Assembly: GCA_963674745.2 (NCBI GenBank)
Contig: CAXXDV010000001.1
Location: forward strand, 2,016,001-2,080,000
DNA length: 64,000 nucleotides
Origin: Desulfosudaceae bacterium
Lineage (GTDB): Bacteria; Desulfobacterota; Desulfobacteria; Desulfobacterales; Desulfosudaceae
Direction: 5' to 3'
In this document: piece by piece, positions 38,555 through 50,668 of the stretch
Position numbering within the stretch: the first letter of the stretch is position 1
How the letters are laid out: each line of letters opens with the position of its first letter
The notes under the pieces: model-generated
What the model saw: the letters and a program-made list of their open reading frames with translations, nothing else
Database searches by the model: none
What the model was told of the DNA's origin: nothing
Program-made: the position numbers and the translations under genes

Positions 38555-39949
38555 TTAGTGGCTTGCCCGGTATTCTGCCAGCGACGCCTGAATGTCTTCG
38601 ATCAGCTCTTTCGGGAAGATCCTTCCGGCCAGTTTTTTCTGGACTTTTTTACTGGCTTCTTTGATGACTTTCATATCTTCGGCTGAGAATATTACGGGGG
38701 TCATCCCGCATTTTGATTCAAAGGCCTTGATACATTTGGCTTCATAACTTCTGACCTGCTGCCGCCATTCGGGCTCAAGAGAATTGAACAGGGAAACAAT
38801 AATCTCCTGAACATTGAAGGCAAAGTTATCGGACGCCCCTGTCTGGGCCTGGATTTTGTCTTTGGTCTGGGTGCTGACGACAATGGCCGCCGGGGAATAG
38901 AACAGCGGTGGTTTGATAATATAATTGACATATTGATAGGCCTGCATTCCCAAAAACCAGGCCGCCGGGCCGGTGGCGGTGTCGGCCAGTCCGGTACTGA
39001 GGGCGGAGATTGCCTCGGGTACGGCCACGGGAATGGCATTGATCTTCAGCTCATCAAATAAAGTGGTCTCTACCACGCCGAACCAGGTATACGGCTTCTG
39101 CTTTCTGAGGTCTGCCAGCCCGGTTACTTTGTATTTTGAAAAAAAGTAGAAAAACCCGGTGTCAATCAGGGCACCCAGGATGTACCCCTTTTTTTCAAAG
39201 CCTTCATCCAGCCGTTTCCTGAATTTTTTCAGAATATAGTCAACTTCGTCGTAATTGTCGAACAAAGCCGGCATCAAGAGCGCCGACGCATCCGGAGAAG
39301 CCGTCAAAACGCCTACAGCCGTACAACCGCAGCCGTCAAGCTGGCCGACATCCATTTTTCTCAATATGTCGGCATCTTCTCCCATGACACCGCCGCCGTA
39401 TATTTTTAATTTAACCTTACCGCCTGTCAGTCGATCAAGTTCTGGAATCGCTACGGTTTCCGGTATGAGCAACCAGGGTGTGCCCGGAGGCGCCAGGGTG
39501 CCGACTTTGATCAGGATGGGGTTGTCTTTTTCAACCGGTGATGACCCCACGCGCCACAAAATTTTCTTGAAATCCGGCCACTCCATGACCGGAGAAAAAA
39601 GCGCGTTGATACGTTCCGGCATTTCGTTCAGAAGATATCGGGACGTCTTATGCTGATCCATCAGGGAAAGCAGGGCCGCTTCGACCATGGATTCAAGCTT
39701 GCTTTTTTGTAATTCACCGGTGTTCAAAAGGGTTTTTAACGCCTGCTGCTGCCGTGCCGCTTCAGGTCCGTCATCCTGACCGGCCCACAAGACCGTCAGG
39801 TTGTCTTTGATAAGGCGCTGCGCTTTCTGGTCGGAAACGCTTGCCGCTGTAACGGTTAATGCCTGGCCCGTGATAAATGTTAAAAGAAGGATGAAAAGGA
39901 AGCCTTTTCGCAAGGGGGCTTTTTTGGCCGGAAAATCAAAAACAATCAT
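38555..39949 (-). CDS. TRAP/TPAT solute-binding protein (DctP family) with N-terminal extra domain, paralog 6
   Basis: Signal peptide; GTLAPPGTPW, YGGGVMGED, LDGCGC and ESKCG motifs. Confidence 0.88.
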   Translation of the reverse strand: MIVFDFPAKKAPLRKGFLFILLLTFITGQALTVTAASVSDQKAQRLIKDNLTVLWAGQDDGPEAARQQQALKTLLNTGELQKSKLESMVEAALLSLMDQHKTSRYLLNEMPERINALFSPVMEWPDFKKILWRVGSSPVEKDNPILIKVGTLAPPGTPWLLIPETVAIPELDRLTGGKVKLKIYGGGVMGEDADILRKMDVGQLDGCGCTAVGVLTASPDASALLMPALFDNYDEVDYILKKFRKRLDEGFEKKGYILGALIDTGFFYFFSKYKVTGLADLRKQKPYTWFGVVETTLFDELKINAIPVAVPEAISALSTGLADTATGPAAWFLGMQAYQYVNYIIKPPLFYSPAAIVVSTQTKDKIQAQTGASDNFAFNVQEIIVSLFNSLEPEWRQQVRSYEAKCIKAFESKCGMTPVIFSAEDMKVIKEASKKVQKKLAGRIFPKELIEDIQASLAEYRASH

Positions 39950-39975
39950 CGTTCACCTCGGTATTTATAGTGTTT

Positions 39976-41373
39976 TTATGGATTATGGGTTTTTCTGTAA
40001 TCTGTCAGCGTTTGTTGAATATCACCTATCAATTCTGCGCTGAAAACCTTTCCGGTCAGTTTCTGCTGAACGGCTCGTTCCGCTTTTTTGATAAGCGCCA
40101 TATCTTCGGATGAAAATGTCAATGCCTGCATACCGCATTTGGTTTCAAACGCCTTGAGGCTTTTTGCTTCGTAAAGGCGTATCTGTCGCTTCCACTCCGG
40201 TTCCAGGGTAATGAATTCCGAAACCAGCATTTCCTGGAAATTTTGCGCAAAGACGTCAGTGACACCCAGATGCTTCTGCAGCCGGTCTTTAATATCGGTG
40301 CTGGTAATAACGGCCGCGGGAGAATAGGAAAGGGGCGGTTTGAGATAAAATCCGACGTATTGATACGCCTGCATACCCAGCATCCAGGCCGCGGGGGACA
40401 ATGTCGCGTCGAATTTACCGGAACTGAGGGCGGATACGGTTTCAGGGGATTTCACATGGACGGCCTTGAGGCCCAGTTCGTCATAAAAGGTGGTTTCCAG
40501 AATGCCGAACCAGGTCTGAATTTTCTGGTTTTTAAGCCCCTCCAGGCCGGACACATAATTTTTTAAAAAAACATTGAAAAAGCCGGTGTCAATCAGGGCG
40601 GCCAGAAGGTATCCTCTTTTTTCAAACGCCTCGTCCAGCCGTTTTCTGAATTTTTCACAGATGAAATCCACTTCTTCATAATTGTTGAACAGGCCGGGCA
40701 GTAACAGTACCGAGGCTTCGGGACAGGCCCCCAGGACACCCAGTGCGGTACAGCCGCAACCGTCCAGTTGACCGGTTTTCATTTTTTCCAGGACATCGGG
40801 ATCTTCTCCCATAACACCGCTGCCGTATATCTGGATCAGGATTTTTTTTCCGCTTAATGCTTCAATATCGGCAATAACCGTATCTTCCGGAAGGTTCAGC
40901 CATGGCGTGCCGGGCGGGGCCAAAGTGCCGACCTTTATTTTAAACGGATTATCTGGGTCGGCTGCCGATGACAATTCCTTCCAGATGATGCCGCGCATTT
41001 CTTTCCAGTTCAGGTGGGGTGAAAAGAGCGTGTTAAACTGTTCCGGCAGGGCTTTTAACGTATATCGTGACGTTTTATGACGATTCAGAATGGAAAGAAT
41101 CGTTGCTTCCATCATGCTTTCAAGCTCTGCTTTCTTGATTGCCCCGGATGACAGCATGCTTTTTAATGCTTTTTGCCGTGATATCAATTCCGGGCCGAAT
41201 GACCGTCCGGTCCATAAGTCTTCCAGGCTGTCACGCAGAATGTTTTGAAATTTCTGTTTGGCGATGTCCGTCGCCATAGCGGTGCGCGCCTGGCAGAAAA
41301 TCACCATTATCAGCACAAAGCACAGGATGGCCGGTGATCTTTTCATTTTCGTTCGACAATTAAAAACGGTCAT
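39976..41373 (-). CDS. TRAP/TPAT solute-binding protein, paralog 5
   Basis: Same motif set as its neighbours; probable start MTVFN. Confidence 0.88.
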   Translation of the reverse strand: MTVFNCRTKMKRSPAILCFVLIMVIFCQARTAMATDIAKQKFQNILRDSLEDLWTGRSFGPELISRQKALKSMLSSGAIKKAELESMMEATILSILNRHKTSRYTLKALPEQFNTLFSPHLNWKEMRGIIWKELSSAADPDNPFKIKVGTLAPPGTPWLNLPEDTVIADIEALSGKKILIQIYGSGVMGEDPDVLEKMKTGQLDGCGCTALGVLGACPEASVLLLPGLFNNYEEVDFICEKFRKRLDEAFEKRGYLLAALIDTGFFNVFLKNYVSGLEGLKNQKIQTWFGILETTFYDELGLKAVHVKSPETVSALSSGKFDATLSPAAWMLGMQAYQYVGFYLKPPLSYSPAAVITSTDIKDRLQKHLGVTDVFAQNFQEMLVSEFITLEPEWKRQIRLYEAKSLKAFETKCGMQALTFSSEDMALIKKAERAVQQKLTGKVFSAELIGDIQQTLTDYRKTHNP

Positions 41374-41593
41374 AAGGCTTTCTCCGGTTATATAAGGCCT
41401 CAATCCAACACAGTCTTTATAAAATCAATTATAGTAAAAAAGCTGTAAGTCAAAATGTCAAGAGACATTCGGATTGATGCCTTTCCGAATACCTGCCGGT
41501 GCTTTTGACATGTCAACGAGAAGGTACTGAAAGAATATCGTATCGGGCCGATTCATTTATTTGAAAGGCCCGGGCGGCCGGAATCAGTTCCGG

Positions 41594-42985
41594 CTATTGT
41601 CCGGCTCTGAATTCGGCCAGTGCGTTCTGAATATCATCGAGCAGGTCTTTGGGGAAAATTCTATCAGCCAGCTTCTGCTGCACGGCTTGACTTGCTTTTT
41701 TTACGGCCTGCTGGTCCGCTATCGCAAAAGTGATGCTTTTCATGCCGCATTTGGTCTCAAAGGCCTTGAAGCTTCGTTGCTCGAACACCCTGATCTGCCG
41801 TTTCCATTCAGGTTCAACCGCATTCCATTCAGACGACAGGACTTCTATCATGTTCCGTGCAAATACGGCTGATATGCCGGTCTGCTGCTGAATTCGTTCA
41901 AAGGTTTGGGTACTGACAATAACAACGGCGGGTGAATAAACCAGTGGTTGATCAAGATAAAAAAATGTGTATTGATAGGCCTGCATACCCAGCATCCAGG
42001 CCGCCGGCGCCACATTGACATCGGCCTGCCCGGTATTGAGTGCCGCGATGATCTCGGGAACACCCAGCGGTATGGGCGCAATCCCCAGTTCTTCAAGCAG
42101 CGTCTTTTCTATGATGCCGAACCAGGTGATAATGTTCTGGGCTCTTAACGCGGCCAGATCAGTGGGCTTATTTCTTGAAAACAGGTAAAAAAATCCGGTA
42201 TCAATGACCGCCCACAGGACATAACCCTGTTTTTCAAAGCCTTCATCAAATCGTTTTCTGAATTTTTCTAAAATATAATCCACTTCATCATAGTTTTTGA
42301 ACAAGCCGGGCAGCAGCATCACAGAAGCTTCAGGGCAGGCCTCCAGCACACCCAGGGCGGTGCAGCCGCAGCATTCAAGCCGGCCGTTGTCCATTTTTTT
42401 CAGGATGTCGGTGTCTTCACCCATGACGCCGCCGCCGTATATTTTGATCGAAATCTTGCCATCACTCAGCCGTTCTATTTCAGGAATGGCAATGTTTTCA
42501 GGTACGCTCAGCCATGGCGTGCCGGGCGGGGCCAGTGTACCGACCTTGATCCGGACAGGCGTATCTTTGTTAATCGGTGCGGTCAGTATCCGCCACATGA
42601 TCTCTCTGGCCGTGTTCCAGTTCATATGGGGTGCGAACAGCGCCTCGAAACGGTCAGGCAGGTCTTTTAAAACATAACGGGATGTCTCCTGGCGTTTCAT
42701 TATGGTCCCGAATGCTTTTGCCGTCATATTTTCAAGCTCGCCCCCGGTCACGTCGCCGTTTGTCAACATGCGTTTTAAGGTCTGTTGCCGCTGTTTTAAT
42801 TCCGGGCTGAATTCCCGGCCGGCCCACATGGCTTCCAGGCTGTCGGTCAATATGTTCTGAAACGCATCCCGGGTGGCTTCAGCTGCCATGGCGGGGCTTG
42901 ATGGCAGGAGCAGTATCACCAGGATGGCAAGACAGGCCGGTATCCATCCCCTGGTTTTGAAAAAGCAGTCATTCTTCAGAGCCAT
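41594..42985 (-). CDS. TRAP/TPAT solute-binding protein, paralog 4
   Basis: Same motif set, with LECCGC variant. Confidence 0.88.
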   Translation of the reverse strand: MALKNDCFFKTRGWIPACLAILVILLLPSSPAMAAEATRDAFQNILTDSLEAMWAGREFSPELKQRQQTLKRMLTNGDVTGGELENMTAKAFGTIMKRQETSRYVLKDLPDRFEALFAPHMNWNTAREIMWRILTAPINKDTPVRIKVGTLAPPGTPWLSVPENIAIPEIERLSDGKISIKIYGGGVMGEDTDILKKMDNGRLECCGCTALGVLEACPEASVMLLPGLFKNYDEVDYILEKFRKRFDEGFEKQGYVLWAVIDTGFFYLFSRNKPTDLAALRAQNIITWFGIIEKTLLEELGIAPIPLGVPEIIAALNTGQADVNVAPAAWMLGMQAYQYTFFYLDQPLVYSPAVVIVSTQTFERIQQQTGISAVFARNMIEVLSSEWNAVEPEWKRQIRVFEQRSFKAFETKCGMKSITFAIADQQAVKKASQAVQQKLADRIFPKDLLDDIQNALAEFRAGQ

Positions 42986-43011
42986 GATGTCATTCCCTTT
43001 TCTTTCGAAAT

Positions 43012-44403
43012 CTAATGTGTCGCCCTGTATTGGGCCAGTGCCCGCTGCATGTCATCAATAAGGTCACGCGGGAATATTTTGCCTGCCAGTTTCTGCTGGA
43101 CGGCCTTACTCGCTTTTGCAAGAACCTGTTGGTCCTGGGGTGAAAATGTCATGGCGATCATGCCGCATTTTGTTTCAAACGCTTTTAAGCTTTTTTCTTC
43201 GTAGAGCCTGATCTGGCGTTTCCATTCGGGCTCAATTATGCCCCACTCATACGTCATTATTTCCAGGATATTATGGGCGAAGGTGGCTGATTTCCCCGTC
43301 GTTTTCTGAATTTTTTCTATTATGTGACCGCTGACAATAACGGCTGCCGGTGAGTAAACCAGCGGCGGCTTAAGATAGTAGTTCGAATACTGGTAAGCCT
43401 GCATGCCCAGCATCCAGGCGGCAGGAGCGACGTTGATCTCGGCCTGGCCGGTTGTAAGGGCGGATACTGTATCCGGTACGGCCACGGGGATGGGGTTGAT
43501 CCCCAGTTCACCATAAAACGTTTTTTCTATGGTGCCGAACCAGGTAATGACTTTCTGTTTTCTGATATCTTCAAGACCGGCTGTTTTGTTTTTTGAAAAC
43601 ATGTAAAAAAACCCGGTGTCAATCAGCGCCAGCAGAATGTCTCCCTGATCTTCAAAACCCTTGTCCAGCCGTTTTCTGAATTTTTCAAAAATATAATCCA
43701 CCTCGTCATAATTTTTAAACAGACCCGGAAGCAGCAAAGCCGAAGCCTCGGGACAGGCCTCCAGCACGCCCAGGGCGGTGCAGCCGCAACACTCAAGCTG
43801 CCCTTCGTCCATTTTTTTCAGGACATCGGTGTCTTCTCCCATGACGCCGCCGCCGTAAATTTTGGTCAGAATCCTGCTGCTGCTCAATCGTTCTATTTCG
43901 GGGAACGCAATGTTTTCCGGTACACTCAACCAGGGGGTGCCCGGCGGGGCCATGGTGCCGACCCGGATTAATATGGGATTGTTTTGATCTATTGTGCTTA
44001 CCATCGCCCCCCACATGATTTCTTTGGCCGTTTTCCAGTTCATTACGGGCGAAAGAAGGGCGTCAAAACGGTCAGGGAATGTTTTAGCAGTATATCGGGA
44101 GGTCTTCTGACGATCCATGATGGCAGGAAACACCTTTTTCATCATGTTTTCAAGATCGGCCTTGCTCACCTGGCCGCTTGTCATCATGCCTGTCAGGGCC
44201 TTCTGCCGCTGCTTGAGCGCCGGGGTGAAATCACGGCCTGCCCATATGGCCTCCAGGCTGTCCTGCAATATGCTTTCAAATTCAGCCCGGGTGGCTGCCG
44301 ATACCGGGGCGACTAGCGCCTGCCCGGCGACAATAACCAACAGGATAACGAATATCCGCACCAGAGGCCTGACTGCTTCGCCATACATTTTTGTTATCGC
44401 CAT
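43012..44403 (-). CDS. TRAP/TPAT solute-binding protein, paralog 3
   Basis: Same motif set, with LECCGC variant; GGAGG RBS before MAITK. Confidence 0.88.
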   Translation of the reverse strand: MAITKMYGEAVRPLVRIFVILLVIVAGQALVAPVSAATRAEFESILQDSLEAIWAGRDFTPALKQRQKALTGMMTSGQVSKADLENMMKKVFPAIMDRQKTSRYTAKTFPDRFDALLSPVMNWKTAKEIMWGAMVSTIDQNNPILIRVGTMAPPGTPWLSVPENIAFPEIERLSSSRILTKIYGGGVMGEDTDVLKKMDEGQLECCGCTALGVLEACPEASALLLPGLFKNYDEVDYIFEKFRKRLDKGFEDQGDILLALIDTGFFYMFSKNKTAGLEDIRKQKVITWFGTIEKTFYGELGINPIPVAVPDTVSALTTGQAEINVAPAAWMLGMQAYQYSNYYLKPPLVYSPAAVIVSGHIIEKIQKTTGKSATFAHNILEIMTYEWGIIEPEWKRQIRLYEEKSLKAFETKCGMIAMTFSPQDQQVLAKASKAVQQKLAGKIFPRDLIDDMQRALAQYRATH

Positions 44404-44508
44404 TGTCACGCCTCCTTGTATATTGGTGTGGTCCGTTATGATAAGCATATGAAATAAAACAAATACTTTTTTAGTATCAGGCAAATCCTCAAAATATTCA
44501 AGCCAATA

Positions 44509-45903
44509 TTAATTTTGCGCCCGAAAGGCTTCAAGGGCTTTTTGTATATCTTCCAGTAGGTCTGCCGGAAACGCCTGGCCGGCCATTTTTTTTTGCACGG
44601 CCTTGCTTGCCAGCTCAATTCGTTTTTGATCTTCCGGTGATAATGTTATGACCTTCATACCGCACTTGGTCTCAAAGGCCTGGAGGCTTTTTTGTTCGTA
44701 ATCTCGTATCAGGCTGTTCCACTTTGGTTCAAATGCGTTGAATTCAGAAACGATTATTTCTTGAATATTGTGAGTAAACGTCGAGGAAATCCCCAGTTGT
44801 TTTTGAAGCCTTTCGATCATGCCGGTGCTGACAAAAACAGCTGAAGGCGAGTAAAGCAGCGGCGGTTTGATATAATAGTTAACATATTGATAAGCCTGCA
44901 TGCCCAGCACCCACCCCGCCGGCGCCAGGGAAGCATCTGCCACGCCCAGGCTGAGTGACGAAACGATGTCGGGTACTGACACCGGCATGCCACGAATACC
45001 TATTTCCTGGTAGAGCGTTGTCTGAATGACACCAAACCAGGAAAGCATTCTCTGCTTCTTTAAATCTTCCAAATCGTTGATTTTGTTTTTTGAAAAAAAA
45101 TAAAAAAAGCCGGTGTCGACAAAGGCCCCCACAATGTATCCGCGTTCTTCAAACGCTTTTTCCAGGCGGTTTCTGAATGTTGAGATGATGTAATCGATTT
45201 CCCCATAGTTACGGAAAAGACCGGGCATCAACAGCGCCGATGTATCCGGTGCTGCGGCCAGAACACCCAGCGCGCTGCAGCCGCAGCCGTCAAGCCGGTC
45301 ATCTTCCATTTTCTGCATGACATCGGTATCGCTGCCCATAACCCCGCCGCCGTAAATTTTTACCCGGATTTTGCCCTGGCTCAATTTTTCTATTTCCGGC
45401 AGCAGTATCGTCTCGGGCGCGTTTAACCAGGGGGTCCCCGGAGGCGCCAGGGTACCGATTCTGACCAGTACGGGGTCATCTTCTTTGGCCACGGATGATA
45501 TCGCTCTCCACATGATTTTCCGGAAACCGTCCCAGTCCATATAAGGCGAGAAAAGCGTATTAATGTGTTCGGGAAGAGTTTTTAAAACATATCGCGTTGT
45601 TTTATGGGTGTTCATTATGGTGAGAAGGCTCTGCTCTGTCATGATCTCAAGCTCGTCTTTGCTTACACCACCTGTGGCCAGCATCTGTTTAAGTGTATCT
45701 TGCCGCCGCAACAATTCCGGGCTGGATGTCTGACCGGTCCATAAGACGGTCAGGCTGTCCTGCAATATGTTTTTAAATTCTGCCAGGGAATTGTCTGCTG
45801 CGCTTGTCAATGTCGGTTGCCCTGCCGCGAAAATCAGCATCAGGGCCAAAAAGCACACGGCCGACACCCGGTTCCGCCCGGTACGAATGTTGGAAATGGC
45901 CAT
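44509..45903 (-). CDS. TRAP/TPAT solute-binding protein, paralog 2
   Basis: Same motif set; GGAGG RBS. Confidence 0.88.
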   Translation of the reverse strand: MAISNIRTGRNRVSAVCFLALMLIFAAGQPTLTSAADNSLAEFKNILQDSLTVLWTGQTSSPELLRRQDTLKQMLATGGVSKDELEIMTEQSLLTIMNTHKTTRYVLKTLPEHINTLFSPYMDWDGFRKIMWRAISSVAKEDDPVLVRIGTLAPPGTPWLNAPETILLPEIEKLSQGKIRVKIYGGGVMGSDTDVMQKMEDDRLDGCGCSALGVLAAAPDTSALLMPGLFRNYGEIDYIISTFRNRLEKAFEERGYIVGAFVDTGFFYFFSKNKINDLEDLKKQRMLSWFGVIQTTLYQEIGIRGMPVSVPDIVSSLSLGVADASLAPAGWVLGMQAYQYVNYYIKPPLLYSPSAVFVSTGMIERLQKQLGISSTFTHNIQEIIVSEFNAFEPKWNSLIRDYEQKSLQAFETKCGMKVITLSPEDQKRIELASKAVQKKMAGQAFPADLLEDIQKALEAFRAQN

Positions 45904-45951
45904 GGTCAAGCCTCCTTATGTTGATGTATGATAAAGGAATATATAATCGGT

Positions 45952-47343
45952 TTAATGCTGAGCCCTGTAGTTTTCGAGCGCCTTGTTTATTTTTTCGATA
46001 AAATCCTTTGAAAAAGCCTTGCCGGCCAGATTCAGCTGAATGGCCTTACCGGCTTTCTCGATTCGCTGCTGGTCTTCAGGGCTAAGCGTAAACGCGCATA
46101 TGCCGCATTTGGTTTCAAAGGCTTTCAGGCTTTTTTCTTCATAGGCTCTGATCTGACGGTTCCATTCCGGTTCAATCGCCATAATTTCAGCAATGATTAA
46201 TTCTTGAATGTTTGATGCCAGGGTATTGGATATCCCCACCTGTTTTTCTATTCTTTTTACGGTTTGCCGGGTGACAAAAATAGCCGTAGGTGAATAGAGC
46301 AACGGCGGCTTGCAGTAAAAGTTCGCGTATTGATAAGCCTGCATGCCCAGCATCCAGGCAGCGGGGGACAGGACGGTATCTCCGGCATCGGTGCCGAACG
46401 CCGAAACAACGTCAGGTACTGCAACGGGTATAGAATTGATTCCAAGTTCTTGAAACAGGGCCGCCTCAATCGCCCCGAACCATGTCAGTACCTTCTGCTT
46501 TTTTAAAGCCGGCAGCCCGCTTATTTTATTTTTTGAAAACAGATAAAAATATCCGGTATCAATCAGTCCGGCAAGTACGTATCCCCTTGCCTCAAAGGCT
46601 TTATCAAGGTCTTTTCTGAATGTTTTGCAGATGTAATCAATTTCGTCATAATTCTTGAATAAACCGGGCAGCAGCATTGCAGATGCTTCCGGAGAGGCTT
46701 CCAGAACACCCAGCGCAGTGCAACCGCATCCGTCAAGCCGGCCGGCGGTCATTTTTTTCAGGATTTCCGTGTCCTCGCCCATGACACCGCCGCCGTAAAT
46801 TTTTAAGCGGACTTTTCCCTGGCTTATTTTGGAAATTTTAGGGAAGAGCATCGTTTCAGGCACTTCAATCCAGGGGGTCCCCGGTGGGCCAAGGGTGCCG
46901 ATGGTGATCCGGACAGGGTCGGCTGCATCAACCGATGACACCAGTGCCCACCACATTATTTTTTCAAACTCCTGCCAGTTCATGACAGGTGAAAACAGTG
47001 TGTTGATCTGTTCAGGGAGCGCAGCCAAGATATATCGTGACGTTTTATACTTATCTACTATGGGAACAAGGGAAGATTTCACCATATTTGAAAGATCGGC
47101 CTTTCCCATAGGGTTTGATTTCAGCAGGGTTTTAAAGGCGTTTTGCTGTTGTTTAAACGCCGGCGTGTGTGATTTTCCGGTCCATAGCGCAACCAGGCAG
47201 TCATTTATGACGGCCTGAATGACCTTCGGAGTTGAATTTTCCGCCTTCGCAGCCGGCGAACCGGCGGCGACAATCATCATAATAATAAGACAGGACAGCG
47301 TCGGCAGTCGTTGAATTTGCAGATGAACTTTAGAAATGCTCAT
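45952..47343 (-). CDS. TRAP/TPAT solute-binding protein, paralog 1
   Basis: Same motif set; ATG preceded by a G10 run. Confidence 0.88.
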   Translation of the reverse strand: MSISKVHLQIQRLPTLSCLIIMMIVAAGSPAAKAENSTPKVIQAVINDCLVALWTGKSHTPAFKQQQNAFKTLLKSNPMGKADLSNMVKSSLVPIVDKYKTSRYILAALPEQINTLFSPVMNWQEFEKIMWWALVSSVDAADPVRITIGTLGPPGTPWIEVPETMLFPKISKISQGKVRLKIYGGGVMGEDTEILKKMTAGRLDGCGCTALGVLEASPEASAMLLPGLFKNYDEIDYICKTFRKDLDKAFEARGYVLAGLIDTGYFYLFSKNKISGLPALKKQKVLTWFGAIEAALFQELGINSIPVAVPDVVSAFGTDAGDTVLSPAAWMLGMQAYQYANFYCKPPLLYSPTAIFVTRQTVKRIEKQVGISNTLASNIQELIIAEIMAIEPEWNRQIRAYEEKSLKAFETKCGICAFTLSPEDQQRIEKAGKAIQLNLAGKAFSKDFIEKINKALENYRAQH

Positions 47344-47592
47344 GAAGCCCCCCCCCCTTGAGTTCAAATGGCTGACAAACGTTTTTGTCTAATTGTTTTT
47401 TCCGCGTTTTTCTTAACAGCTTCCATATATTCGTTAAGGCGGGTTTTTGAAAGCCGCCGTTCTACCCGGGTTGGAATCGGCATGGACGCCTCGATGATCG
47501 GCGCATAAAATAATCAGTAAAAGCAAAAACGGCCTGCGTCAGCATGACGCAGGCCGAAATGATCACGATCACCCACTGTTTTTTCATGTTTC

Positions 47593-47885
47593 TTAATGGG
47601 ATGCTCTGTATTCCGCCAGCGCCTTTTGAATCTGGTCGATCAGGTCTTTGAAAAAAGCCTTGCCGGCCAGTTTCTGCAAAACGGCTGCACTGGCCTTCTT
47701 GATGCGATCCTGGTCTGCGGGCGGAAGATTCATGGGTGTTTGGATGCCACATTTGTTTTCAAAGGCCCGCAGCGTTTTTTCTCATCGCTTCTGATCTGTT
47801 GTTTCCATGTAACCATCAGTTCCATAATGAAGCAGGAAAGCATCGACGATTTTTCAGTACCAGAACACAAATCAGGAAAGGCCAT
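47593..47885 (-). pseudogene. internally deleted seventh solute-binding protein paralog
   Basis: MAFPDLCSGTEKSSMLSCFIMELMVT runs directly into WKQQIRSDEKK, then after a frameshift TLRAFENKCG...LQKLAGKAFFKDLIDQIQKALAEYRASH*, matching the paralog C-termini. Confidence 0.85.
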
Positions 47886-47950
47886 TATCACCTTATCCTT
47901 TTTGTGTTTTTTCAGAGCCTATGTCTGTATCTTCATTCTTTTCCAGAACC

Positions 47951-49261
47951 TCATAGCAGGTCCATGGGGTCAATCAGGTTTTTCTTGGTCGTAAATTTAA
48001 GCAGATACAGTGAAAAATCGGGAACGTAGGTTATTAAAATAAGCCCGATTACCAGGATAATGAAGAACGGAATAACCGATTTTAAAATTACCGGAAAAGA
48101 CTTGTTGAATTTTATCGAGGAGATAAACAGGCTCATACCGATTGGCGGGGTGACAAAGCCGAGCTCCATATTGGCCAGAAAGATGATGCCCAGATGAATC
48201 GGATCAACGCCATACTTTAAGGCAATGGGAACAATAATCGGCACCACGATGGCGCAAGCTGAAAATATGTCCATGGCCGTACCGACAAACAGGAGGAAAA
48301 TATTCAAAAGCAGGAGAAAGACATATTTATTGCTGACATGGTTGCAGATGATTTCAAACAATTGATCCGGAATGGACAGGGTCACAAACACATCCGTCAA
48401 CCCCAAAGCCATCCCCACAATGATCAGAATTGAGCCGTTCATGATCATGCTGCGACGAATAACGGTGATTAATTTGGTTACGGTCATATCCTTGGTGACA
48501 AACAGTTCGACCAGTAATACATAGACCGCGGTAACGGCGGCGGCTTCAGGGGCGGAGAAGATGCCGCCCAGGATACCGCCGACAACGAAAAAAGGCAGCG
48601 GCAATTCCCACATGATATCTCTGGTTGACGCCAGTATCTCAGAAAGGGAAATTTTTTTATGCCTGGTGTATTTAATGCCGAAGAAGAAAGAGTATATCCA
48701 CATCAATACCAGCAGGAGTAAGCCGGGAATAAGTCCGGCGATGAACATGTCTTCAACGTTCAGCGGTGTCTGCTGGCTGGCGATGACGCCATACAGAATC
48801 AGCGGCAGGCACGGCATAAACAGGGTGCCCAGGCTGCCGCCGGTGGTAATAAGCCCCAGGGTGAAGTTCTCGGGATAGTTGTCCTGGCGAAAAGCCGGGT
48901 AGAGGAGGGTGCCGATGGCCACAATGGTAATGGCACTGGCACCCGTGAAAGCCGTGAATATGGAACAGGCAATCAAGGCCACCAGGCACAACCCGCCGGG
49001 CATCCAGCCGATAAGCGAGTTGGTGAATCGCAGCATTTTTTCCGGGACCCGGCTTTCAGCCAGCAGATATCCGGAAAAAATAAAGAGTGGTACTGCCACA
49101 AACACCGGCATGGTGGTCAGCCGGTAAAAATCCGTAAACAGGGTAGCGGGTGCGATGCCAAGCACAACAAAAAAACTCGCAAAAGCCGCGCCGCCGATGA
49201 TAATAAACAGTGGTTCCCCGAAAACTGCCAGCAGGACAAGCCCTAATACAATAAAGCCCAC
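47951..49261 (-). CDS. dctM: TRAP transporter large permease
   Basis: AVPLFIFSG, GWMPGGL, FTAFTGAS, GVDPIHLGIIF and ELGFVTPPIG motifs. Confidence 0.93.
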   Translation of the reverse strand: MGFIVLGLVLLAVFGEPLFIIIGGAAFASFFVVLGIAPATLFTDFYRLTTMPVFVAVPLFIFSGYLLAESRVPEKMLRFTNSLIGWMPGGLCLVALIACSIFTAFTGASAITIVAIGTLLYPAFRQDNYPENFTLGLITTGGSLGTLFMPCLPLILYGVIASQQTPLNVEDMFIAGLIPGLLLLVLMWIYSFFFGIKYTRHKKISLSEILASTRDIMWELPLPFFVVGGILGGIFSAPEAAAVTAVYVLLVELFVTKDMTVTKLITVIRRSMIMNGSILIIVGMALGLTDVFVTLSIPDQLFEIICNHVSNKYVFLLLLNIFLLFVGTAMDIFSACAIVVPIIVPIALKYGVDPIHLGIIFLANMELGFVTPPIGMSLFISSIKFNKSFPVILKSVIPFFIILVIGLILITYVPDFSLYLLKFTTKKNLIDPMDLL

Positions 49262-49285: not shown

Positions 49286-49792
49286 TTATTGCTGTTTTTG
49301 TCTTTCTTTTATTTCGATTATATCCGTCAAAAAACAAACGAAAAACTTATAGGCCATGGAAAGAAAACAAACAGGGAAAATCAGTGTGATCACCCACTCC
49401 GGGGTGTGTATGGCCTGTTCTATTTTTCCCACGCTTTTGGTTACAAGTACATAGTGTGCGGCAAAGGAACAAAACATCAAGCAGGCCATGCTGGCGATAA
49501 ACGTCAACACCGCGTTCAAGTATTTATTATATGGAAATTTGAGAATCCCCTGAAAAAGGTCAATATTAATATGACTTCTTTCAAAACTCGTTGTCGCGAT
49601 ACTTGCCCCCAGCATGGCCAGTACCAGCAACGCCATATTATTGTAGACGGCCATCCAGATAATGGAAAAAGAAAAGAAATTTCGCAGGACGACCTGACTG
49701 AACGCGAAAACCGAAAGTGACAACAATAATATGACGATGGCCGTCAGTTCGATGTTGTATATAGCTTTTTCAATTTTATACAAAAGTTTCAT
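49286..49792 (-). CDS. dctQ: TRAP transporter small permease
   Basis: QVVLRN, LGASIA and HINID motifs; four TM segments. Confidence 0.9.
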   Translation of the reverse strand: MKLLYKIEKAIYNIELTAIVILLLSLSVFAFSQVVLRNFFSFSIIWMAVYNNMALLVLAMLGASIATTSFERSHINIDLFQGILKFPYNKYLNAVLTFIASMACLMFCSFAAHYVLVTKSVGKIEQAIHTPEWVITLIFPVCFLSMAYKFFVCFLTDIIEIKERQKQQ

Positions 49793-49798
49793 TTTAAG

Positions 49799-50668
49799 TT
49801 ACCGGCTCCCCATTTTTTCCAGGTAAATTTCAGCCTTGTATTTGGCAATCTGATTTAACAGTTCCACTTCCGGCATCTGTCCGTCCGGGGTGTCGATAAT
49901 GCTCTGATAAATGGCCCTGGTATCGTTGTCGTCTGTAACATAAAACCGGGCGTAAAACACCTTGGAAAGGAGAAACTTACCATCGTTCATATCGGAAATG
50001 GTCTGGAACGCTTTTTTTGCTTTTTGTTTGTCGCCGCCGAAGGTGGCCGGCAGCATGCTGTTGACCGTTCCCACAAACAGATGGGCATAGCCGTAGAAAT
50101 AATCGCCGTCAACTTCAGCTACATGGTTGGCCATATTGTTCACCGCGGCCAGGTCGATGGCGATCATGGGATCACCGGCGTTCAGCAGCACATTGGCGCC
50201 CATGCAGGAGGCCGTCCACATCAGAACCGGAATGAATTTTTTGCTTTTGATTTTTTTGCAGGCCACACTGATGCTTTCACCTTTTTTAAGTGCATTGCGG
50301 AACCCCCGGTGATGTTTCAGCGCTTTTATCCCCAGTTCGGTCCCCCGGGTGTATAAGGTGGTCGCCTGTTCAGGATCTACATCTTCAACCATCATTCCCA
50401 GGCCGGTATAAGCTTTTGTCGCCATGATCAGCAACAGCATGTCGTCAGGAGCGGTTTCCAGCATTCCTTCGAGCAGCAGGAGCTGTCCCGGAAGCCCCTT
50501 TTTTACGAGATCAAGATTTTTTTGCTGGAAAAGTGCAACCTCGATATTCTCAATGGCAGGGTGTGCGATCTTAATCCCTGAGCGCATCATGGAAGTGCAT
50601 CCGGATACCATTACCAGAAGAGCGGCTACGGCACACATACACACCAATTTCTGTTTGAATGAGGTCAT
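49799..50668 (-). CDS. TRAP transporter T component (TatT), lipoprotein
   Basis: Lipobox VSGC (Cys24); LP..LLLLEG.L...P, A..LY.RG...G..AL, P..FGGD...A...F and LLN.IAK.KA patterns; adjacent to dctQM. Confidence 0.82.
   Translation of the reverse strand: MTSFKQKLVCMCAVAALLVMVSGCTSMMRSGIKIAHPAIENIEVALFQQKNLDLVKKGLPGQLLLLEGMLETAPDDMLLLIMATKAYTGLGMMVEDVDPEQATTLYTRGTELGIKALKHHRGFRNALKKGESISVACKKIKSKKFIPVLMWTASCMGANVLLNAGDPMIAIDLAAVNNMANHVAEVDGDYFYGYAHLFVGTVNSMLPATFGGDKQKAKKAFQTISDMNDGKFLLSKVFYARFYVTDDNDTRAIYQSIIDTPDGQMPEVELLNQIAKYKAEIYLEKMGSR

Follow-up and report, generated by a model that had tools for sequence, protein, structure and literature searches.

A conserved N-terminal domain, predicted to be a five-helix bundle, on tandemly encoded DctP-type TRAP binding proteins of a Desulfosudaceae bacterium

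We analysed a stretch of 64,000 nucleotides (hereafter the window) from the genome of a Desulfosudaceae bacterium (GenBank assembly GCA_963674745.2, contig CAXXDV010000001.1, positions 2,016,001 to 2,080,000 of the forward strand), in which a tandem array of genes for solute-binding proteins (P proteins) of the TRAP (tripartite ATP-independent periplasmic) transporter type lies next to the genes of a TatT-DctQ-DctM module. Between positions 38555 and 47367 the minus strand carries six head-to-tail open reading frames (ORFs) of 463-490 amino acids (aa; longest-ORF calls), each of which encodes a signal peptide, then a conserved block of about 108 aa, and then a DctP-type TRAP solute-binding core. 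The TatT, DctQ and DctM genes are located directly upstream on the same strand, giving the order T-Q-M-P. The block, referred to here as the N-domain, belongs to no curated family, and no solved relative of it was found. The features of the locus are as follows, P paralogues being numbered from the low-coordinate end where a number is used.

49799..50668, minus strand: TatT, the T component, a tetratricopeptide-repeat-like lipoprotein (lipobox SGC) whose gene opens the module (Pfam PF16811 TAtT, E 2.1e-39)
49286..49792, minus strand: DctQ small membrane subunit (Pfam PF04290, E 1.5e-12)
47951..49261, minus strand: DctM large membrane subunit (Pfam PF06808, E 1.2e-77)
47596..47781, minus strand: what is left of a seventh P paralogue, namely its C-terminal 62 aa (52% identical to residues 406-466 of paralogue 5 by tblastn, E 1.3e-13)
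45952..47343, minus strand: P paralogue nearest DctM (likely ATG 47343, longest ORF to 47367; PF03480 from residue 172)
46918..47241, minus strand: N-domain of the P paralogue nearest DctM (alignment; profile match E 1.6e-49)
44509..45903, minus strand: P paralogue 5, the one that was modelled (likely ATG 45903 behind AAGGAGG)
45475..45798, minus strand: N-domain of paralogue 5, five helices (AlphaFold2 model)
43012..44403, minus strand: P paralogue (likely ATG 44403 behind AAGGAGG; longest ORF to 44484)
43978..44301, minus strand: N-domain of P paralogue 43012..44403 (alignment and profile match)
41594..42985, minus strand: P paralogue (ORF, PF03480)
42560..42883, minus strand: N-domain of P paralogue 41594..42985 (alignment and profile match)
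39976..41373, minus strand: P paralogue (likely ATG 41373; longest ORF to 41403)
40948..41271, minus strand: N-domain of P paralogue 39976..41373 (alignment and profile match)
38555..39949, minus strand: P paralogue, last of the array (ORF, PF03480)
39521..39844, minus strand: N-domain of P paralogue 38555..39949 (alignment and profile match)

For four of the six P genes an internal ATG is the likely start (41373, 44403, 45903 and 47343); these codons align with the other starts and lie behind a GGAGG-like or G-rich site, the one at 47343, which is also the end coordinate given in the initial annotation, being codon 9 of the longest ORF with a G-rich ribosome-binding site before it. In full-length alignment the six P proteins are 50-55% identical to the first one. 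The remnant of a seventh paralogue sits in a gap of 583 bases (47368-47950) between dctM and the first intact P gene, and it is presumably because of this remnant that the initial annotation, made from the sequence, spoke aptly of "intact" P paralogues. No such gap exists in the congeneric genome G002, where only a few bases separate dctM from the first P gene. A further gap of 190 bases (41404-41593), which may contain an internal promoter or terminator, separates the second and third paralogues, the other spacers measuring 24-42 bases.

The N-domain had been described in the initial annotation as a conserved block between the signal peptide and the DctP start of every P paralogue, and this holds for all six proteins, in which about 108 aa can be aligned without gaps between a hydrophobic signal peptide with an AxA-like cleavage site and the sequence GT(L/M)(A/G)PPGTPW. 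The DctP start had been given as GTLAPPGTPW throughout; this is exact in four of the six paralogues, with the degenerate consensus applying to the rest. Seventeen columns of the block are invariant among the six copies (D14, L16, W20, G22, P27, Q33, L50, M53, T67, R69, Y70, P76, L82, P85, W89, I95 and W97). The motif proposed earlier thus had the right elements in the right order, including (K/E)T(S/T)RY and P...W, but its spacing was approximate; from G22 to Q33, for example, there are 11 residues. Each of the six segments matches the six-sequence profile with E ~1e-49 to 1e-51, and the block is conserved far beyond chance. Among the six copies the block has an amino-acid identity of 42%, compared with 59% for the core and 22% for the signal peptide. 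The corresponding pairwise ratios of nonsynonymous to synonymous substitutions (dN/dS; Nei-Gojobori) are 0.38, 0.16 and 0.64 for the six copies and 0.32, 0.18 and 0.76 across 18 paralogues of the genome, figures that are rough because synonymous sites are near saturation. The block is under purifying selection, yet evolves faster than the core.

AlphaFold2 predicts the mature paralogue 5 with high confidence (25-row alignment; mean predicted local distance difference test score, pLDDT, 94.1; predicted template modelling score, pTM, 0.90). Residues 1-101 of this model form a bundle of five helices (2-21, 27-42, 47-64, 69-83 and 89-101) with inter-helix loops of 4-5 residues, and an 8-residue linker joins the bundle to strand 1 of the core. 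Folded alone (30-row alignment), the block shows the same helices with a pLDDT of 92.3 and a pTM of 0.84. As the prediction is confident both in the whole protein and for the block by itself, the block is not disordered.

Searches for known relatives were negative at the levels of sequence and structure. No family in Pfam-A 2025 was common to more than one of the six segments (best single E 0.0046), no NCBIfam 20.0 model matched the N-terminal block (best E 0.11), no PDB sequence matched a profile of 30 N-domains (best E 0.27), and the ESM Atlas yielded no usable match to the N-domain. Solved TRAP binding proteins align by sequence only from query residue 139-173, and the Treponema pallidum protein TatP(T) only from residue 145. 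With the whole model as query, Foldseek matched TRAP binding proteins over about 315 columns, the query-normalised template modelling score being only 0.55-0.66. On re-alignment with VIA the chains of the 50 matches listed span model residues 98-111 to 420-429 (Z 30-33, root-mean-square deviation 2.1-2.8 Å, 297-310 residues), and in none of these 50 solved TRAP chains is the bundle covered. The bundle alone gave no Foldseek match better than E 1.2. When it was compared with 48,161 structure representatives, 25 chains reached a Z of at least 5, topped by cullin N-terminal repeats (Z 8.4, root-mean-square deviation 3.7 Å, 104 residues, 5% identity); Z values below about 13 are common for helical bundles with this structure-search tool. 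Cullin-repeat bundles such as the CUL3 N-terminal region (8gq6_C) likewise consist of five antiparallel helices of similar length, but identity is 5-8%, there is no sequence signal, and Z stays below the level that is meaningful for helical bundles. The fold matches of the predicted bundle are generic helical ones, and the likeness to cullin repeats is probably one of shape only. A derivation of the N-domain from TatT helices was also considered and rejected (0.7% probability in a profile-profile comparison). Literature searches found no N-terminal domain described on DctP-type proteins, although subscription journals were outside their scope and a prior mention is possible.

The initial annotation had proposed a new, probably helical domain, with TatT docking, oligomerisation or membrane contact as candidate roles, and had suggested a profile hidden Markov model of the six segments as well as a structure prediction followed by a fold search. 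This interpretation is supported in part, namely in that the domain is new and helical: the segment has no sequence match in Pfam, NCBIfam or the PDB, and it is confidently predicted as a folded five-helix bundle for which Foldseek returned nothing significant and VIA only generic helical shapes. The profile search, in turn, brought up matches outside the locus, those of full length being DctP fusions once false positives were set aside, and no known domain. The block is thus folded, is conserved well beyond the locus and corresponds to no known domain.

In more detail, the profile of the six segments retrieved 16 proteins at E 0.001 or better from 1.84 billion representative proteins. Twelve of these are DctP fusions or short fragments, all full-length ones being DctP fusions, and one of the twelve is a 554-aa protein with two tandem blocks. 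The other four (P0013, P0016, P0017 and P0018) are long repeat proteins (leucine-rich repeats, low-complexity repeats, a Reg_prop histidine kinase) and were discarded as false positives. P0014 and P0015, which might be taken for stand-alone half-domains, are singletons on contigs of 589 and 640 bases and do not constitute evidence for a free-standing form. A word-index protein search with a single N-domain recovered only the query itself and one relative, the sensitivity of this tool being limited. With the 30-row alignment, the same kind of search among longer proteins gave 25 matches in two length classes (448-469 and 542-569 aa), 24 of which carry PF03480 and no other domain; the exception, which is 276 aa long and has no recorded Pfam domain, comes from a contig of 2098 bases and is probably a fragment. 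Where the source gives a name for the matched proteins it is generic, for example "TRAP transporter substrate-binding protein". The named sources are metagenome-assembled genomes (MAGs) of Thermodesulfobacteriota and Desulfosudis oleivorans (Desulfosudaceae, Desulfobacterales), to which a scan of a genome collection added an uncultured Desulfonema MAG and another Thermodesulfobacteriota MAG.

In the genome from which the window is taken (G000; 5.55 Mb, 3 contigs) the block occurs 20 times, distributed over 19 ORFs (457-552 aa), and only three of its 22 DctP-type ORFs (341, 347 and 418 aa) are without it. Of 12 other genomes belonging to the family, 8 were found to carry the block (genera g1, g3, g5 and g6, not g2 or g4), compared with none of 28 genomes that each represent a different other family of the order; several of these 40 relatives are incomplete, so that "not found" does not equal "absent". 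In a quick maximum-likelihood tree of the cores (quick search only), all 45 proteins bearing an N-domain form one clade (Shimodaira-Hasegawa-like approximate likelihood ratio test, SH-aLRT, 99), which a long branch separates from the short P subunits described below. A single fusion, after which the proteins multiplied, would be the simplest explanation. The bundle would then be a single invention of one Desulfobacterales family, probably the Desulfosudaceae, found only in fusion with this DctP subfamily.

The predicted geometry suggests which end of the bundle faces the core. With loops of only 4-5 residues, consecutive helices must be antiparallel. In this arrangement the loop W20-x-G22 and the turn T67-S-R-Y70 would share the core-proximal end of the bundle with the C-terminus of helix 5, and G43, P85/W89 and the N-terminus would be found at the opposite end. 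The end with W-x-G and KTSRY would sit against lobe I of the core, with the bundle projecting away as an arm, and the high pTM of the full model suggests that the orientation of the bundle on the core is fixed. Additional evidence on this interface comes from binding proteins of 552-581 aa with two N-domains, which represent a conserved orthologue group in five genomes of three genera (in the window's genome G000 C1:1008309-1009967) and in which the second copy has a shortened helix 1 that continues helix 5 of the first. In the core tree they make up, together with one 457-aa row (P0037), a clade of 10 rows (SH-aLRT 98). The copy adjacent to the core keeps (K/R)TSRY in all five double-domain proteins. 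The distal copy, again in 5/5, has a two-residue insertion and has lost Arg-Tyr (e.g. ETSVDIF, KITVDGL), with LLTG, KQ, SPYMSW and the Trp of helix 5 being kept. Because the distal copies alone have lost it, Arg-Tyr appears to be dispensable for the fold and needed only where the bundle meets the core.

The N-domain is associated with one particular TatT-DctQ-DctM module. There are three TatT genes in the window's genome, and the two other TatT operons, arranged as P-Q-M-T, encode short P subunits without the block:

G000 C1:636556-640466: other TatT operon 1, with its short P at C1:636556-637581
G000 C1:680904-684705: other TatT operon 2, with its short P at C1:683662-684705

The T-Q-M genes of the window have no such short P and are followed by six N-domain genes, so that 19 N-domain proteins stand against one T-Q-M set lacking a short P. 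The other 13 N-domain genes are orphans in that no TatT, DctQ or DctM gene of their own operon lies beside them; one of them, at C1:686396, has the second TatT operon at a distance of about 1.7 kb. The window's TatT has orthologues (57-77% identity, plus one contig-end fragment at 59%), as does its DctM (single-copy, 74-90%), in G001, G002, G004, G006, G007, G009, G010 and G012, which are exactly the eight genomes that carry the block, and DctQ orthologues (69-85%) adjoin TatT in the relatives. In the four genomes of the family without the block, the best TatT match reaches 27-29% identity (none in G003) and the best DctM match 31-46%. T is followed by Q and M in all eight genomes, and N-domain P genes flank T-Q-M wherever the available sequence suffices, in the following layouts:

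G002: T-Q-M-P×5
G007: P-T-Q-M-P
G009: T-Q-M-P, a gap, then a second P
G004 and G012: P-T

The core identities of the five-gene array of G002 to the window array are all 58-71%, and one-to-one orthologues are not resolvable. Co-occurrence and adjacency are the strongest evidence that these receptors belong to this T-Q-M module, as a correlation among relatives with linked genes; they do not single out the bundle as the coupling element. An alignment of the window-type TatT with the other TatT proteins showed small indels only and gave no pointer to a docking site.

The core itself is of a familiar type. PF03480 matches all six P proteins with 58-94 bits (cut-off 23.4), and only from about residue 150-196; paralogue 5 matches NF037995 with 166.9 bits (cut-off 50) and NCBIfam TRAP_S1 from residue 150. 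The modelled core has the two-lobe periplasmic binding fold of solved TRAP binding proteins (Z 30-33). In its two-lobe core, matched end to end by solved structures, and in its Pfam and NCBIfam profile matches, the P protein resembles canonical DctP/SiaP-type proteins (PF03480). It differs from them in two respects. The usual mature protein is a single module of about 300-340 aa (PDB chains 299-352 aa), whereas the core here comes after a folded domain of about 105 aa, and the conserved carboxylate-selecting Arg of lobe II is replaced by Phe in paralogue 5. Arg is present at this position in 4x8r, 4nhb, 4pdh and 4p47 (4/4), and was recognised as the conserved one by its G-x-R context and from passages of a review (PMC5812351). 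It is Leu in TatP(T) and Phe or Leu in four N-domain paralogues of the window's genome (DTGFF/DTGFL), and the two short P subunits of the genome also lack the Arg. According to the same passages the selectivity Arg occurs in 96.8% of 6,142 TRAP sequences, and a further paper states, in the part available, that it confers carboxylate specificity (PMC4646407).

As the Arg is replaced by Phe, much as it is by Leu in TatP(T), the cargo of these proteins is probably hydrophobic, that is, fatty-acid-like or hydrocarbon-derived. Tetratricopeptide-repeat-protein-associated TRAP (TPAT) systems presumably transport hydrophobic molecules and are reported from hydrocarbon degraders (PMC5812351, in part), and TatT proteins are described in sections of another paper (PMC11713862) as binding long-chain fatty acids, about 2% of TRAP systems having a T component. 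The neighbourhoods of the orphan genes fit diverse, largely hydrophobic or ester substrates under local regulation. They encode an AMP-binding enzyme (acyl-CoA-synthetase-type), a lipase-type hydrolase and a lipase chaperone, alpha/beta hydrolases, old-yellow-enzyme-type reductases, short-chain dehydrogenases/reductases, Zn-dependent alcohol dehydrogenases and metallo-beta-lactamase-fold proteins, together with regulators of the TetR, GntR, AraC and MerR-TetR types and, in two cases, a pair of histidine kinase and response regulator. The orphan at G000 C1:501423-502826 adjoins the genes for a lipase-type alpha/beta-hydrolase and a proteobacterial lipase chaperone (PF03280), which hints that at least this paralogue handles products of lipid hydrolysis.

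Two further observations concern the core. The loop GT(L/M)(A/G)PPGTPW after strand 1 is almost invariant across the 19 paralogues, which are about 54% identical overall, and in external relatives; its role may be to bind a group that all the ligands have in common, or else to contact the bundle. In addition, three cysteines (C207, C209 and C414 in paralogue 1, 38555-39949) are invariant in the six cores within LDxCGC and KCG motifs and are missing from the ordinary TRAP binding proteins that were aligned. In a periplasmic protein they suggest a disulfide or a metal/ligand site.

By gene content the operon in the window is a TPAT system, recognised here from its genes. Like the system of T. 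pallidum (TatP(T)/TatT/TatQM; PDB 3u65, 4di3, 4di4), it comprises TatT (PF16811), DctQ and DctM, its P core aligns with TatP(T) (E ~4e-10) with a hydrophobic residue at the selectivity Arg position in both, and hydrophobic cargo is expected in both cases (PMC5812351, PMC11713862; both in part). Unlike the window's P proteins, TatP(T) begins at the equivalent of residue 145 and has no N-domain, and it is described as a lipoprotein in the passages of the review (PMC5812351), whereas the P proteins of the window have AxA-type signal peptides in which no lipobox Cys was seen by eye. Moreover, there is one P in T. pallidum, compared with six tandem P genes in the order T-Q-M-P and 13 orphans here. 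The short P subunits of the genome's other TatT operons are the closest core relatives within the genome (29-32% identity) and share the position beside TatT and the lack of the Arg, but they comprise only 341 and 347 aa without an N-domain, their TatT partners are 29-31% identical to that of the window, and the gene order is P-Q-M-T. A comparable imbalance between receptors and transporters is described for the Bordetella Bug/TctC orphans, where many paralogous periplasmic binding proteins, encoded mostly away from transporter genes, face very few membrane units; these belong to a different protein family, for which the relevant passages report no extra domain (PMC5812351). The same review counts only about 35 other species with TPAT systems; the window's genome has three such systems.

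Each P gene of the array would thus encode a secreted, soluble TRAP solute-binding protein of the TPAT kind, in which the two-lobe DctP core has gained at its front a rigid bundle of five helices (about 105 aa) that has been inherited together with one particular TatT-DctQ-DctM module. Our tentative reading, which may well have to be revised, is that the N-domain is a lineage-specific adaptor arm for this dedicated module, with many receptors sharing one membrane unit. The arm would act as an adaptor or address tag by which many paralogous binding proteins dock on a single shared TatT-DctQ-DctM, and would keep the 6 receptors of the array and the 13 orphans apart from the other TRAP and TPAT systems in the same periplasm. 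The strict co-occurrence and adjacency with one TatT-DctQ-DctM lineage would fit docking to that module. Several points weigh against it. The genomes are related and the genes linked, so that one gain and subsequent vertical inheritance explains the co-occurrence without functional coupling. TatP(T) and the two short P subunits of the genome's other TatT operons work without an N-domain, which is therefore not a general requirement for partnership with TatT. Finally, the N-domain is the fastest-evolving folded part of the system, with between-genome identities of 26-51% compared with 56-71% for the core, 57-77% for TatT and 74-90% for DctM, and such fast divergence is not expected of a docking surface for a conserved partner. 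In a bolder version, which we regard as improbable, the bundle would represent a new type of docking module linking soluble binding proteins to TatT, so that as many as 19 receptors, whose hydrophobic substrates differ (fatty acids, hydrocarbon-derived acids, esters), feed into one TRAP unit, with the invariant Arg-Tyr at the junction with the core replacing the lost selectivity Arg in trans.

The main rival to the adaptor arm, doubtful but the one to be taken most seriously, places the bundle in the ligand site, as a lid or cleft extension that enlarges or closes the hydrophobic pocket and whose Arg-Tyr serves as a polar anchor, for example for a carboxylate head group, in place of the lost Arg. 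A core without the canonical selectivity Arg next to an N-domain with an invariant Arg-Tyr, the retention of this pair only in the core-adjacent copy of double-domain proteins, and the faster divergence of the N-domain than of the core among paralogues, as is often seen in specificity-determining parts, would all agree with such a role. However, the bundle joins the N-terminus of strand 1 through its 8-residue linker, at a place that in ordinary TRAP binding proteins is remote from the mouth of the cleft, and this mode of attachment counts against a lid. TatP(T) and the short P subunits likewise lack the Arg and yet have no such domain, and the near-invariance of the APPGTPW loop suggests that a common ligand moiety is recognised by the core itself. 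Rather unlikely, too, is a bundle without any external partner, that is, a stability or solubility add-on, a spacer or a self-association module fixed by descent. The confident packing of the bundle on the core (pTM 0.90), its fast-evolving surface, its tandem duplication, as known for spacer modules, and the stackable five-helix cullin repeats among its best fold matches (Z 7-8.4) are in line with this explanation; it accounts less easily for the retention of the bundle in all 45 sampled members with invariant Q33, T67, R69 and Y70, over what the saturated synonymous divergence suggests is a long time, and for the strict linkage to one T-Q-M lineage. For self-association, moreover, the sole helix-swapped TRAP binding-protein dimer reported in the accessible part of PMC11668362 uses the C-terminus. 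That many N-domain proteins are periplasmic co-sensors, with the bundle contacting sensor kinases or chemoreceptors, we consider very unlikely. Two of the 13 orphans (C3:1337522-1338904 and C3:1783424-1784809) are indeed immediately preceded by a gene pair for a histidine kinase and a response regulator (of sigma-54 type in one case and OmpR type in the other), and a gene for a methyl-accepting chemotaxis protein is found near the latter, but the other 11 orphans are located beside enzymes or one-component regulators, the six genes of the window form an operon-like array behind DctQM, and the linkage that is conserved across genera is the one to T-Q-M.

In every solved example among the matches listed, a TRAP binding protein is a single two-lobe module, and the N-domain departs from that. 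A folded, family-specific domain that travels with one TatT-DctQ-DctM lineage offers a handle on the hand-over of cargo between T, P and QM, and on how one membrane unit can serve many orphan binding proteins without cross-talk. Should docking and the provision of an Arg in trans both prove true, a TRAP receptor's partner interface and its ligand anchor would both be built in a way not seen before. Desulfosudis oleivorans, one of the named carriers, is an alkane degrader. If the family carrying the N-domain consists of alkane- and fatty-acid-degrading sulfate reducers, the expansion of these binding proteins may reflect the uptake of hydrocarbon-derived substrates in anoxic sediments.

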